In this document: positions 33,754 to 36,997 of the stretch, piece after piece | Layout: the number at the start of each line of letters is the position of its first letter | Position numbering within the stretch: position 1 is the first letter of the stretch | From: Bacteroidota bacterium | Lineage (GTDB): Bacteria; Bacteroidota; Ignavibacteria; UBA10030 | DNA length: 64,000 nucleotides | Assembly (NCBI GenBank): GCA_025454835.1 | Contig: JALONQ010000011.1 | Coordinates: forward strand, 420 to 64,419 | Reading direction: 5' to 3' | Notes under the pieces: model-generated | What the model was told of the DNA's origin: nothing | What the model saw: the letters and a program-made list of their open reading frames with translations, nothing else | The model's database searches: none | Translations under genes and position numbers: made by a program

Positions 33754-34437
33754 ATGGATCACCGCACGGCGATCACATCGTGGCCTGTGGAGGAGCGACC
33801 GCGCGAACAGTTGTTCGCCAAAGGGGCCGCCTCGCTCACGGATGCCACACTCTTGTCGATCATCCTTCGAACGGGTTCCCGCGGACGCTCTGCCGTGGAC
33901 CAGGCACGCGCGCTGCTGTCGGAGGCGGGAGGTCTGCAGGAACTTTCGCGATGGACGGCGGGGGAGCTGGGCAACCTGGTGCCGGGTACCACTCGTGTGG
34001 CCAGCCTGCTGGCGATGTTCGAACTGGCTCGGAGATTGGCCGCAGGTCGTTCGGGCGAGCGGAGGATCATTCGCACGCCCGAGGACGTCGCGGCGAGGTT
34101 TGGCCCGCTCCTGCGCCATCTGCGTCATGAAGAATTCTGGGCGGTCTTGCTCAATTCCGCCAACGTCGTCCAGGCCGAGGTGCGCATCACGGTCGGAACT
34201 TTGAACGCATCGCTGGCGCATCCGCGGGAGTGCTTCGCCGAGGCCGTCCAACGTCGCGCGGCCAGCGTCGTGTTCGTCCATAATCACCCCAGCGGCAATC
34301 CTGAGCCATCAACCGAGGATCTGGCGCTGACACGGCAGTTAGCAGCGTCGGGGCGAATTCTTGGCATCCCCGTGCACGATCATGTCATCATAGCAGGTCA
34401 GGAGTTCACCAGCCTGGCGGAGCGCGGGCAGCTCTGA
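33754..34437 (+). CDS. radC: RadC/JAB domain protein
   Basis: WPVEERPRE, LLSIILRTG, GTLNASLAHPRE, HNHPSGNPEPS.ED, DHVII. Confidence 0.93.
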   Translation: MDHRTAITSWPVEERPREQLFAKGAASLTDATLLSIILRTGSRGRSAVDQARALLSEAGGLQELSRWTAGELGNLVPGTTRVASLLAMFELARRLAAGRSGERRIIRTPEDVAARFGPLLRHLRHEEFWAVLLNSANVVQAEVRITVGTLNASLAHPRECFAEAVQRRAASVVFVHNHPSGNPEPSTEDLALTRQLAASGRILGIPVHDHVIIAGQEFTSLAERGQL

Positions 34438-34552: not shown

Positions 34553-34581
34553 TTGACATTGCGCGATTGAGGTCGTATTTT
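34553..34581 (+). promoter_or_regulatory. Putative strong sigma70 promoter TTGACA-N17-TATTTT
   Basis: Perfect -35 and 17-bp spacer, upstream of the lipoprotein-LysM pair. Confidence 0.6.
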
Positions 34582-34632
34582 TTGCAATACGCATCAGCAA
34601 ACGAACGCGTTCTCGTACAGGAGATCACCCTC

Positions 34633-34887
34633 ATGAAAAAGCTTTCCACGCTGGCCGTCATCGGAATGCTGTTCGCGGCCGCGCTAACGGGTTGTAGCAA
34701 CAATCCGTCGGCGGAAGAGCTGAAACAGCTCGAAGACCTCAAGGCGGAGGTGTCCTCGTTGGAGAAGCAGATCCAGACCCGCGAGTCGGAGAAGCAGGCT
34801 CTGCTGAAGGCCATCGCCGAAAAAGACGCGCAGCTGGCAGTGTGCGCGAAGGACAAAGAAGCCCTCAAGGCCCGCACGGGCAACTGA
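34633..34887 (+). CDS. Small coiled-coil lipoprotein (Lpp/OprI-like architecture)
   Basis: MKKLSTLAVIGMLFAAALTG|C lipobox followed by a roughly 55-aa heptad coil; AGGAG RBS. Confidence 0.8.
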   Translation: MKKLSTLAVIGMLFAAALTGCSNNPSAEELKQLEDLKAEVSSLEKQIQTRESEKQALLKAIAEKDAQLAVCAKDKEALKARTGN

Positions 34888-34906
34888 TCGAAAGGAAACG
34901 ACACTC

Positions 34907-35668
34907 ATGACCACGCTGAAACGGACCTTGACCGTCGTGCTCCTGCTGGCCGCCTTTGGGGTGGGCCTGACGGCTCAGGAGATGACGAAAGACGACTGGC
35001 AGAAGCAGATCACGGAACTGACTGCCAAGCGCAACGACCTGAAGAATCGACTGTCGTCGATTGAAAACGAAGTGAACAACCTGAAGAAGCAGGATGCCGA
35101 GAAGGCCGCTGCTTTGAAGGCCTGTGAAGATGAATTGGCAGCGCTCAAGGGCGCCGACTTGACTCCGTACCTGGCTGAATTGGACAAGGTGGATGCGCAG
35201 TTGAATGAGTTGTCGCGCCTCTCCAATCAGGACCTGTTCGCGCGTCGCGGCGAGCTTGATGCGTTGCAGAGCAAGATCGACGAACTCAAGAAGAACCGGT
35301 TGTCTGCTTTGCCCCGCTACATGGATCGCCTGAACGATCAGCAGAGCCGCCTCGATGCACTGAAGCGGACGCTCCAGCAGATCATCGAATCGGGCCAGGC
35401 GATGCAGACCTACACGGTCGGCACGTGGGCGAAGGACCGCGACTGCTTGTGGAACATCGCCAAGAAGCCGAAGGTGTACGACAACGCGTTCTTGTGGCCG
35501 AAGATCTGGCAGGGGAATCGCGATCAGATCAAGAACCCCGACATCATCAAGCCGGGCCAGAAGCTCAAGATCCCGGCAAAGGCCGAGCTGACGCAGGAAG
35601 AGAAGTCCGCCGCCCGGTCGTACTGGAACAAGAAGCAGGCGGCAGCCCCGGCAGCGCCGGCGAAGTGA
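34907..35668 (+). CDS. Secreted coiled-coil + LysM peptidoglycan-binding protein
   Basis: Signal peptide GLTA|Q, long coiled coil, LysM TYTV...DCLWNIA...WPKIWQGNRDQIKNPDIIKPGQKLKIP. Confidence 0.88.
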   Translation: MTTLKRTLTVVLLLAAFGVGLTAQEMTKDDWQKQITELTAKRNDLKNRLSSIENEVNNLKKQDAEKAAALKACEDELAALKGADLTPYLAELDKVDAQLNELSRLSNQDLFARRGELDALQSKIDELKKNRLSALPRYMDRLNDQQSRLDALKRTLQQIIESGQAMQTYTVGTWAKDRDCLWNIAKKPKVYDNAFLWPKIWQGNRDQIKNPDIIKPGQKLKIPAKAELTQEEKSAARSYWNKKQAAAPAAPAK

Positions 35669-35710
35669 CCAGCGTCATCTGTCAGGCGCGCGGTTGACAT
35701 CACGCATTCC

Positions 35711-35761
35711 GACGAACGCCCTCGCAGCACACGATGTGTGCCGAGGGCGTTCTGTCGTTTT
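35711..35761 (+). terminator. Intrinsic terminator after the LysM gene
   Basis: GAACGCCCTCG/CGAGGGCGTTC stem with T-rich tail. Confidence 0.65.
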
Positions 35762-35980: not shown

Positions 35981-36997
35981 TTGATCGAAAAGAAGCTCCA
36001 ACTGTCCGGCGTTGACCCTGTCCAGCTGCTCGGGTACAACGACGCCCACCTCCAGCTCATCGAAGAGCGCTTCGACGCCACGGTCGCGGTGCGAGGCGAC
36101 ACCGTGCTCGTGCGCGGATCGCTGCAGGACGTCACGAAGATCGAGAAGATCTTCAAAGAGCTCATCTTCATCCTGACGAAGAACGGCGGCCTCGGACCGA
36201 ACGACGTAGCGACCGTCATCGATCTTGTGACCGTGAACGGAACGTCGCCGGCCTTGCCGGCCGAGTCCGTCGCCACGGACGACGGCGAGCATGCCATCCT
36301 CTTCACGCGGGTCGGTATCATCAAGGCCCGCACCCCGGGACAGAAGGTGTACCTCCAGGCGGCCCGGAAGAACGACATTGTGTTCGGCATCGGTCCGGCT
36401 GGGACGGGCAAGACCTACCTGGCCGTGGCCATAGCGGTGGCGGCGCTCAAGAACCGGGACGTCACGAAGATCGTGCTGGCGAGGCCGGCGGTGGAGGCGG
36501 GGGAGAGTCTGGGGTTCTTGCCGGGTGACTTCCGCGAAAAGATCGACCCATATCTCCGGCCGCTGTATGACGCCTTGGACGACATGTTGTCGGCGGAACG
36601 GCTGAAGAACTACCTCGAGAAGCGGATCATTGAGATCGTGCCGCTCGCCTACATGCGCGGCCGTACACTGCACAACGCCTTCGTCATTCTCGACGAAGCC
36701 CAGAACGCGACGGCGGTGCAGATGAAGATGTTCCTGACGCGGCTGGGGACCCACGCGCGGGCGATCATCACGGGGGACATCTCGCAGATCGACCTGCCGA
36801 CCAAGACGACATCAGGCCTCGTGCAGATCCAAGAGGTGCTCAAGCAGGTGCAGGGCATCTCGTTCGTCTACTTTGACCGGAACGACGTCGTCCGGCACCG
36901 TCTCGTGAAGGACATCATCGATGCCTACGACCGGTTCAACGGCGTGACGAACGAAAGGGTGGGGGAGCCGACTACGAAGCGCGGTCCCGGCGCTTGA
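35981..36997 (+). CDS. phoH: PhoH family ATPase (YbeZ-like)
   Basis: GPAGTGKTYLA, RPAVEAGE.LGFLPG, PLAYMRGRT, LDEAQN, GDISQIDL; TTG start. Confidence 0.93.
   Translation: MIEKKLQLSGVDPVQLLGYNDAHLQLIEERFDATVAVRGDTVLVRGSLQDVTKIEKIFKELIFILTKNGGLGPNDVATVIDLVTVNGTSPALPAESVATDDGEHAILFTRVGIIKARTPGQKVYLQAARKNDIVFGIGPAGTGKTYLAVAIAVAALKNRDVTKIVLARPAVEAGESLGFLPGDFREKIDPYLRPLYDALDDMLSAERLKNYLEKRIIEIVPLAYMRGRTLHNAFVILDEAQNATAVQMKMFLTRLGTHARAIITGDISQIDLPTKTTSGLVQIQEVLKQVQGISFVYFDRNDVVRHRLVKDIIDAYDRFNGVTNERVGEPTTKRGPGA

Follow-up and report, generated by a model that had tools for sequence, protein, structure and literature searches.

Two adjacent genes of a Bacteroidota bacterium from the class Ignavibacteria encode proteins that, by our computational analysis, very probably pair with one another through matching coiled coils. 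The genes lie at positions 34,633 to 35,668 of a 64,000-nucleotide stretch of DNA that we call the window (GTDB lineage Bacteria; Bacteroidota; Ignavibacteria; UBA10030; NCBI GenBank assembly GCA_025454835.1, contig JALONQ010000011.1, positions 420 to 64,419 of the forward strand). The first gene specifies a small coiled-coil lipoprotein (P0001), and the second specifies a secreted protein (P0002, called here the LysM protein) that combines a coiled coil with a LysM domain. There is good computational support for a hetero-coiled-coil in which a Cys layer is juxtaposed: the two coils are paralogous, the gene pair is conserved and inherited together, the Cys co-vary, the charges are complementary, and a model of the complex passes its controls. 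Regarding what the assembly does, we lean toward a bicistronic lipoprotein/LysM hetero-coiled-coil that is locked by Cys and acts as a membrane-to-wall staple. Tether function is the most likely reading of these data.

In the mechanism that we propose, the two genes would constitute a single bicistronic unit whose products would join in the periplasm as a hetero-coiled-coil with parallel, in-register chains. The mature lipoprotein of 64 residues would be held by its N-terminal lipid anchor, which most likely sits in the inner leaflet of the outer membrane. The secreted partner would zip its first helix (roughly 55 residues) onto that chain, and its far end would carry a three-helix bundle and the LysM domain, the latter gripping peptidoglycan non-covalently. 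An inter-chain disulfide between Cys71 of the lipoprotein and Cys73 of the partner, which share a heptad d layer, would probably lock the two proteins together. Such an assembly would be a non-covalent, two-piece staple between membrane and wall, a functional analogue of Braun's lipoprotein or Pal with an unrelated wall-binding part. Within this scheme, we infer the disulfide chemistry, the 1:1 stoichiometry, the outer-membrane location, the binding of peptidoglycan, and the tether function. The features on which the argument turns are the following.

34633..34887, plus strand: gene for the 84-residue coiled-coil lipoprotein (open reading frame; lipobox L-T-G-C read in the sequence)
34633-34692, plus strand: lipoprotein signal peptide
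34693-34695, plus strand: codon of the lipid-anchor Cys21
34843-34845, plus strand: codon of the coil Cys71
34907..35668, plus strand: gene for the 253-residue secreted coiled-coil/LysM protein (open reading frame)
34907-34975, plus strand: signal peptide of the LysM protein
34988..35155, plus strand: long N-terminal helix of the LysM protein, full-length residues 28-83 (helix at mature residues 5-60 in the structural model)
35123-35125, plus strand: codon of Cys73 in that helix

Paralogous coils in a co-inherited gene pair

The two coils resemble each other in both sequence and register. An ungapped alignment of lipoprotein residues 31-79 with LysM-protein residues 33-81 contains 18 identities in 49 positions. 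The original prediction, made from the DNA letters alone, had arrived at the same figure by hand, and the count is exact. None of 500 plain shuffles and none of 500 shuffles that preserve the heptad register reach 18 identities (means 11.0 and 12.6, respectively). BLASTP of the lipoprotein against the LysM protein returns 25 identities in 77 positions (E 1e-4), and hhalign comparison of the two family alignments gives a probability of 94% (E 1.3e-7), setting lipoprotein residue n+1 against partner residue n in the same register. Together, the shuffle-tested identity, the BLASTP match, and the same-register profile match argue that the lipoprotein coil has a paralogue in the first helix of the LysM protein. 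In the lipoprotein coil, 35 residues separate the conserved Leu layer from the Cys layer in 156 of 156 distinct gene pairs; 160 pairs were extracted, and the 156 distinct ones are the basis of the pairwise counts below.

The gene pair is conserved across Ignavibacteria and related Bacteroidota. Relatives occur in Ignavibacteria/Ignavibacteriales, including metagenome-assembled genomes (MAGs) labelled Ignavibacterium album and Melioribacter, in a Candidatus Kryptoniota MAG, and in Bacteroidota MAGs. Each gene is present in 39 of 41 related genomes, and both are absent from the same two. An iterated profile shows, in 162 of 165 loci, a lipoprotein gene directly upstream of its LysM neighbour, and a contig edge cuts the remaining three. 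Searched with both family profiles, five genomes rated 99-100% complete turned out to lack the two genes, and second copies, present in genomes G009 and G011, come as pairs. Co-occurrence had been proposed at the outset as a check, and the two genes are indeed conserved together, absent together, and duplicated together. In a 301-genome sample of the phylum, full-length relatives of the LysM protein exist throughout the class and in one further family, and elsewhere the LysM part alone is present. A profile search of 1.84 billion representatives returned 115 clusters at E <= 1e-30, with a 460-residue match (P0078) among the matches.

One set of candidates was set aside during these searches. 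The weak profile matches in the five genomes devoid of the pair are in unrelated open reading frames of 268-412 residues. The one of these that was read, L168 (397 residues), is a membrane protein of another kind that contains a coiled-coil stretch, and not a fusion of the two; no systematic search for fusions was made.

Cysteines that are gained, shifted, and lost together

The main Cys layer is formed by mature residue 51 of the lipoprotein and residue 73 of the LysM protein. Both Cys are present in 132 pairs, neither is present in 23, the lipoprotein alone carries its Cys in 1, and the partner alone does so in 0. In the 23 pairs that lack both, small or hydrophobic residues stand in for the Cys (A/V, A/T, and L/L, for instance), and L/E also occurs. 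Two further layers exist. Specifically, a clade of five pairs without the main layer possesses both Cys exactly 21 residues (three heptads) earlier, and nine pairs possess an extra layer, composed of a lipoprotein Cys located 1-2 residues past the lipid Cys and a partner Cys at the start of the helix, both of which are absent from close relatives. The shifted and extra layers include zero mixed cases. Cys co-conservation, a second check proposed for this pair, is thereby borne out across the family. On a tree built without the coil columns, the main, shifted, and extra layers supply 5, 1, and 3 independent contrasts, respectively, of which 3, 1, and 1 fall on well-supported branches; none is discordant.

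A bond would be expected to leave just such an all-or-none pattern, seen here at three layers. Simple packing of two thiols is disfavoured because single replacements would then be tolerated and mixed states would be common, yet 1 of 156 pairs is mixed. The same pattern bears on an arrangement in which each protein would assemble with itself, the lipoprotein as an Lpp-like trimer or a disulfide dimer and the LysM protein as a dimer, with the coil likeness stemming from duplication only. The homo-disulfides of such assemblies would need no joint loss (23 pairs), no joint 21-residue shift (5 pairs), and no joint gain (9 pairs).

Other Cys in the two families were considered as well. LysM-domain Cys180 gives way to H, N, or Y in 18 of the 156 pairs, and these retain the coil Cys pair. 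Cys180 is thus not the obligate partner of Cys73, and the bond between the coil Cys and the LysM Cys (DCLW) that the original prediction had named as fatal to its proposal does not hold as an obligate pairing. At one locus (L181, genome G285), a single lipoprotein gene is flanked by two LysM genes. The L181 lipoprotein carries an extra C-terminal Cys, and both flanking LysM proteins carry an extra Cys in a loop that is modelled against the lipoprotein C-terminus. In a Kryptoniota-like group (L123, L188-L190), the coil Cys is missing from the LysM proteins. Their three-helix bundle region carries two different Cys that may pair within the chain.

Charge complementarity and a model of the complex

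The charges that flank the coil core distinguish the partners. With the register taken from the complex model described below, the mean number of net attractive g-e' pairs is +2.61 for the in-register hetero form, +0.38 for the LysM-protein homo form, and -0.92 for the lipoprotein homo form. The hetero score is higher than the mean of the two homo scores in 137 pairs, equal to it in 9, and lower in 10. Cognate partners score 2.61 versus 1.33 +/- 0.09 for shuffled partners, and shifting the register by 7 or 14 residues yields scores of -1.14 to 0.84. These values indicate that the g-e' charges are tuned to the cognate, in-register hetero partner, and they argue against self-assembly, in which the charges would be repulsive for the lipoprotein and near neutral for its partner.

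The complex was modelled from mature residues 1-150 of the LysM protein and the mature lipoprotein, with 65 relatives of each, in three runs. The complex score is 0.69 in 3 of 3 runs versus 0.00 for the best of 3 controls. The score mark is reached by 116 of 157 solved complexes and by 2 of 215 mismatched pairs, a calibration that is only rough here because self-supplied alignments were used. At least 98% of the contacts are common to the runs, and the partner's predicted local distance difference test score (pLDDT) is at least 89. In the modelled interface, which involves residues 2-58 of the partner, the helices are parallel and in register, with partner residue n against lipoprotein residue n+1. 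The contacts follow a 3-4 rhythm that puts both Cys at d, the same heptad position to which the original prediction had assigned them. The contact between partner residue 50 and lipoprotein residue 51 is that of the two coil Cys, and the other Cys layers lie on the same diagonal. Profile searches of solved structures revealed no similar complex, only LysM domains and generic coiled-coils. The model supports, and does not prove, binding. The parallel, in-register hetero-coiled-coil with juxtaposed Cys that was first proposed from the letters has gained support from four sides: Cys co-variation, g-e' charges, the co-presence, co-absence, and paired duplication of the genes, and the complex model.

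Predicted anchor and domains of the two proteins

The mature lipoprotein is nearly all heptad-patterned, has a single internal Cys (Cys71), and terminates in RTGN; the sequence confirms the earlier statement that a C-terminal Lys is missing. Its lipobox, L-T-G-C, occupies residues 18-21 and predicts lipidation, and the lipobox Cys is the sole invariant column of the lipoprotein family alignment A1. The signal peptide of the LysM protein has an end of the signal-peptidase-I type (LTA/QE), and an A-x-A/Q-type site is kept in relatives. The window's LysM protein is without a lipobox Cys; it carries coil Cys73 and LysM-domain Cys180.

Variants of these termini exist among relatives. In L142 (genome G148), the LysM protein carries its own lipobox-like A-S-C-G after the signal peptide, an arrangement that fits both N-termini residing at the membrane. 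In L138, L139, L141, and L144, the lipobox has Asp at -1 (L-T-D-C), which is unusual for a lipoprotein signal. Distant lipoprotein orthologues (L124-L147, L128, L132, L137, and L076) continue at the C-terminus into an extension that contains a Trp/Pro-rich motif and finishes in a Lys-rich stretch; this extension is absent from the clade of the window's lipoprotein.

An AlphaFold2 model of the mature LysM protein, built with 65 relatives, has a pLDDT of 93.3. Beyond the first helix, it delineates three parts.

35153..35404, plus strand: three-helix bundle, full-length residues 83-166 (mature 60-143), from the secondary structure of the model
35405..35575, plus strand: LysM domain, full-length residues 167-223 (mature 144-200), with Cys180 conserved in the motif RDCLW
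35594..35644, plus strand: conserved C-terminal helix after the LysM domain, full-length residues 230-246 (mature 207-223), from the model

The structures that VIA-align pairs with the bundle are generic three-helix bundles (Z 9-10), too common to name a family. At E <= 0.001, Foldseek against the PDB matches the LysM part alone and nothing in the helical part of the protein. Pfam LysM (PF01476) recognizes residues 179-223 at 23.3 bits (cut-off 20.9), and at 24.6 bits in a whole-genome scan. The beta-alpha-alpha-beta fold of this part corresponds, by Foldseek, to the LysM domains of Kbp and CBM50 (probability 0.99-1.00, root-mean-square deviation [rmsd] 0.8-2.1). The Kbp match, 7pvc, has 44% identity and an rmsd of 1.8, and the CBM50 match, 7r1l, is a structure with GlcNAc3 (GlcNAc, N-acetylglucosamine). 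A PDB profile search likewise returns Kbp (E 1.8e-11). Family membership suggests that the window's LysM domain may bind peptidoglycan or GlcNAc polymers. In the C-terminal helix, the column of mature E209 is nearly invariant in the LysM-protein alignment A2.

Probable transcription unit and neighbouring genes

The two genes are bordered by putative signals for the start and the end of a transcript.

34553..34581, plus strand: promoter-like site, sigma-70-like, TTGACA-17-TATTTT, with 10 of 12 consensus matches
35710-35757, plus strand: terminator-like hairpin, followed by UUUU to 35761 (fold -42.2 kcal/mol, z -5.77)

One site of the TTGACA-17-TATTTT type is observed versus 0.2 expected in shuffles, and 0 of 200 shuffles fold as well as the hairpin. 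The sequence GGAG at 34620-34623 precedes the lipoprotein ATG with a spacing of 9 nucleotides. The two-gene unit proposed earlier is borne out in the letters: the open reading frames share a strand, and both flanking signals, one promoter-like and one terminator-like, rise above shuffles. In each of four metatranscriptome runs, one contig extends over both genes (34602-35708, 34605-35713, 34602-35705, and 34608-35683), and these four contigs cover both genes and nothing outside them. A roughly 1.1-kb RNA running from the promoter to the hairpin fits the contigs, which we regard as a weak hint. Their left ends, at 34602-34608, likewise point only weakly to an RNA start shortly past the promoter-like site. 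The RNA contigs of the same runs leave the RadC gene and most of the PhoH gene uncovered; we do not count this as a finding, and contig depth cannot rank genes. In run X3, a separate 171-base contig (35829-35999) lies between the hairpin and the first PhoH codons.

The surroundings of the pair are themselves conserved. Of 138 distinct loci, 137 have a PhoH-like ATPase gene downstream (35981-36997 in the window), and 110 have a RadC gene upstream (33754-34437). Often nearby are MazG (101 of 138 loci) and a TPR + Peripla_BP_6 protein (79 of 138).

Weighing the alternatives

Several observations weigh against a Cys-locked staple. The Cys events are few, with nine contrasts on the best tree, five of them well supported, and no single-site sign test reaches 0.05, because the independent contrasts are too few. 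The discordant pair, L176, which is the second copy in G009, has a lipoprotein Cys facing a partner Thr. The complementary a/d core of the original prediction survives only in part: the five listed pairs of a charged with a hydrophobic residue are present in register (V20/R19, R30/I29, K34/V33, I41/D40, and K55/L54 in mature numbering), but a crude a/d core score gives the hetero form no advantage (7.79 versus 9.62 for the LysM-protein homo form and 7.01 for the lipoprotein homo form). The modelled stoichiometry is 1:1 hetero only, and in 27 of 156 pairs the partner coil is, by alignment, 1 or 3 residues shorter than the lipoprotein coil. Adjacency alone is weak evidence because the whole region is syntenic, as the PhoH gene illustrates. 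Sugar binding by the window's LysM domain is not guaranteed because its nearest solved relative, Kbp, is named a potassium-binding protein. In the Borrelia burgdorferi envelope protein BB0323, deletion of the LysM motif is reported to have left outer-membrane organization unchanged (PMC5462797). Finally, the genome, which is 100% complete by markers, contains no Pfam match to DsbA, DsbB, VKOR, or Thioredoxin_4, the families searched for a disulfide-making enzyme, and VKOR is present in two genomes whose pairs are without the coil Cys. Among five genomes, loss of the Cys shows no correlation with loss of oxidation machinery.

The alternative that survives best accepts the hetero-coiled-coil and denies that it is a static outer-membrane-to-wall staple. 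The pair could instead be anchored in the inner membrane, it could scaffold or regulate the remodelling of the wall or cell division, much as coiled-coil factors such as EnvC and NlpD do, or it could position another machine at the wall. We regard this as possible, and give it a minority share of our belief. Neither the membrane nor the function is fixed by the data here: the residue at +2 after the lipid Cys (S in 94, T in 40, and G in 16 of 156 pairs) is uninformative on membrane sorting for this phylum. One public source labels members of the lipoprotein cluster "septal ring factor EnvC," and the well-folded three-helix bundle and the conserved C-terminal helix could bind other partners. 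The conserved PhoH synteny and the dispensability of the BB0323 LysM motif for outer-membrane organization would suit this alternative as well. On the other side, neither protein has a catalytic or LytM domain, the EnvC name reflects coiled-coil likeness only, and the combination of a lipid anchor, a rigid rod, and a wall-binding module is tether architecture.

Classical tether domains are, moreover, scarce in this genome family. A whole-genome search for the Lpp family (PF04728) came up empty at E <= 0.1, and one with PF00691 found no small Pal-like or OmpA-like gene. The OmpA-type domains that do exist are two (G000:C17:12166-13206, outside the window), arranged in tandem in one 1553-residue open reading frame. 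Four other genomes of the same family have 0, 1, 1, and 5 OmpA-type matches, and other families of the class have 20-53. Elsewhere in the genome, LysM occurs in one 837-residue open reading frame only.

A narrower alternative retains the complex and dispenses with the bond. The two thiols would be packed in the core or would jointly bind a metal ion, and the coil alone would hold the complex together. The lack of matches to oxidation enzymes fits this idea, as does the origin of many relatives in wetland or sediment samples, settings that may be poor in oxygen. Furthermore, the 23 pairs without Cys manage with their small or hydrophobic replacements. We nonetheless think it unlikely, given the all-or-none pairing at three layers. 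The disulfide is proposed from that pattern, not from known machinery.

Lpp-type lipoproteins are homotrimers. Salmonella LppB is reported to form disulfide-linked homodimers besides mixed trimers (bioRxiv 10.1101/2025.11.13.688167), and the high core score of the LysM-protein homodimer, the restriction of complex modelling to the 1:1 hetero form, and the Cys that the L176 lipoprotein retains in the absence of a partner Cys would likewise be at home with separate homo-oligomers; we consider these improbable in light of the joint Cys changes, the cognate-tuned charges, and a hetero model that passes with controls at zero. The lipoprotein/LysM staple remains our preferred reading.

Relation to known tethers

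Braun's lipoprotein (Lpp) and OprI provide the most obvious comparison. They and the window's lipoprotein are small, lipid-anchored, periplasmic, alpha-helical coiled-coils of about 60 residues with a proposed role in linking the outer membrane to peptidoglycan, and the window's lipoprotein shares with them a signal peptide, a lipobox, and an N-terminal Cys. A weak echo exists in sequence, in that PDB Lpp chains match the window's lipoprotein at E 0.003-0.05. In contrast to Lpp, the C-terminal Lys used for covalent linkage is not conserved here, being the last residue in 63 of 156 pairs. In addition, the model would assign wall binding to a second, LysM-bearing chain, would make the coil hetero-oligomeric rather than homotrimeric, and would include a conserved inter-chain Cys layer.

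BB0323 is, as far as its description goes, the nearest functional parallel of the window pair. BB0323 is reported to combine an N-terminal helical portion with one LysM at the C-terminus through which it binds peptidoglycan, to be needed for outer-membrane stability, and to be processed into N- and C-terminal polypeptides that remain associated (PMC5462797). BB0323 would thus in effect be a two-piece envelope assembly with a LysM domain, a likeness drawn by description, not by alignment. BB0323 is made as one chain and then cut, whereas two genes are used here, and neither a paralogous coil pair nor a Cys layer is reported for it. The LysM lipoproteins of the Leptospira LipL71/LruA type resemble the window's protein in the LysM module only.

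Hetero-oligomeric coils have a precedent in Salmonella. Specifically, LppB and LppA are reported to form mixed trimers and disulfide-linked species that tune outer membrane-wall tethering (bioRxiv 10.1101/2025.11.13.688167). Like the predicted window pair, these are coiled-coil lipoproteins that form hetero-oligomers. They differ in that both chains are Lpp-family lipoproteins linked covalently through a C-terminal Lys, the Cys is C-terminal rather than a core layer, and there is no LysM partner.

Other tethers share one element each with the proposed staple. Pal and OmpA grip peptidoglycan non-covalently with a globular domain from an outer-membrane anchor; they employ an OmpA_C-like wall-binding fold rather than LysM, and they are single chains without a coiled-coil rod. 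Division of labor between chains is described for Thermotoga Omp-alpha/Omp-beta, in which the anchor and the wall-binding module are on separate polypeptides (bioRxiv 10.1101/2021.05.31.446380), and for a trimeric autotransporter and periplasmic TpgA, which form a two-component tether (PMC12523085). Both are reported to use SLH or OmpA-like domains and beta-barrel anchors, and feature neither a paralogous hetero-coiled-coil nor a lipoprotein. In full-text literature, we found no description of a lipoprotein paired with a LysM protein in a hetero-coiled-coil, and we read the window pair as a new split variant of coiled-coil membrane-to-wall tethers.

Assignments to existing families were tried and rejected. 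With respect to the Lpp/OprI family, the lipoprotein scores 25.0 bits against NF040598 (cut-off 43; E 2.1e-5) and 16.4 bits against PRK15396 (cut-off 108), and it has no match to PF04728. EnvC, the automatic name of the lipoprotein's cluster members, does not apply to a protein of 84 residues with no M23/LytM match in Pfam or NCBIfam. An Rz1-like phage spanin identity (LysC, PF23793) reaches 16.9 bits versus a cut-off of 27. For the LysM protein, the best NCBIfam match is LipL71 (NF033163), which aligns at model positions 404-468 of 471 only, that is, the LysM part (E 5.1e-14); its 52.1 bits compare with a cut-off of 600, and the LysM protein has no lipobox of its own.

Implications

To our knowledge, detailed accounts of how the outer membrane is fastened to the wall exist for only a few lineages. 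A survey in the literature recognizes four main outer membrane-wall tethering systems and includes genomes that have none of them (bioRxiv 10.1101/2021.05.31.446380). Much more tentatively than the staple itself, we speculate that Ignavibacteria and their neighbours rely mainly on this pair to staple the outer membrane to peptidoglycan, which would make it a fifth tether type alongside Lpp, Pal, OmpA, and OmpM. In this doubtful extension of our proposal, the tether would have arisen from one duplicated coil, its disulfide would make attachment redox sensitive, and the fixed coil length of 35 residues from the Leu to the Cys layer would set the distance between outer membrane and wall.

The pair also offers a clean natural case of a duplicated coil that became an obligate hetero pair, with Cys layers that shifted in step, and it could be useful for understanding coiled-coil specificity. 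The whole idea is testable with two small proteins. If true, a split lipoprotein/LysM tether would represent a new solution to the fastening of the outer membrane in a large, mostly uncultured group of bacteria in which Lpp is not found and, within the genome family studied here, OmpA-type domains are scarce.

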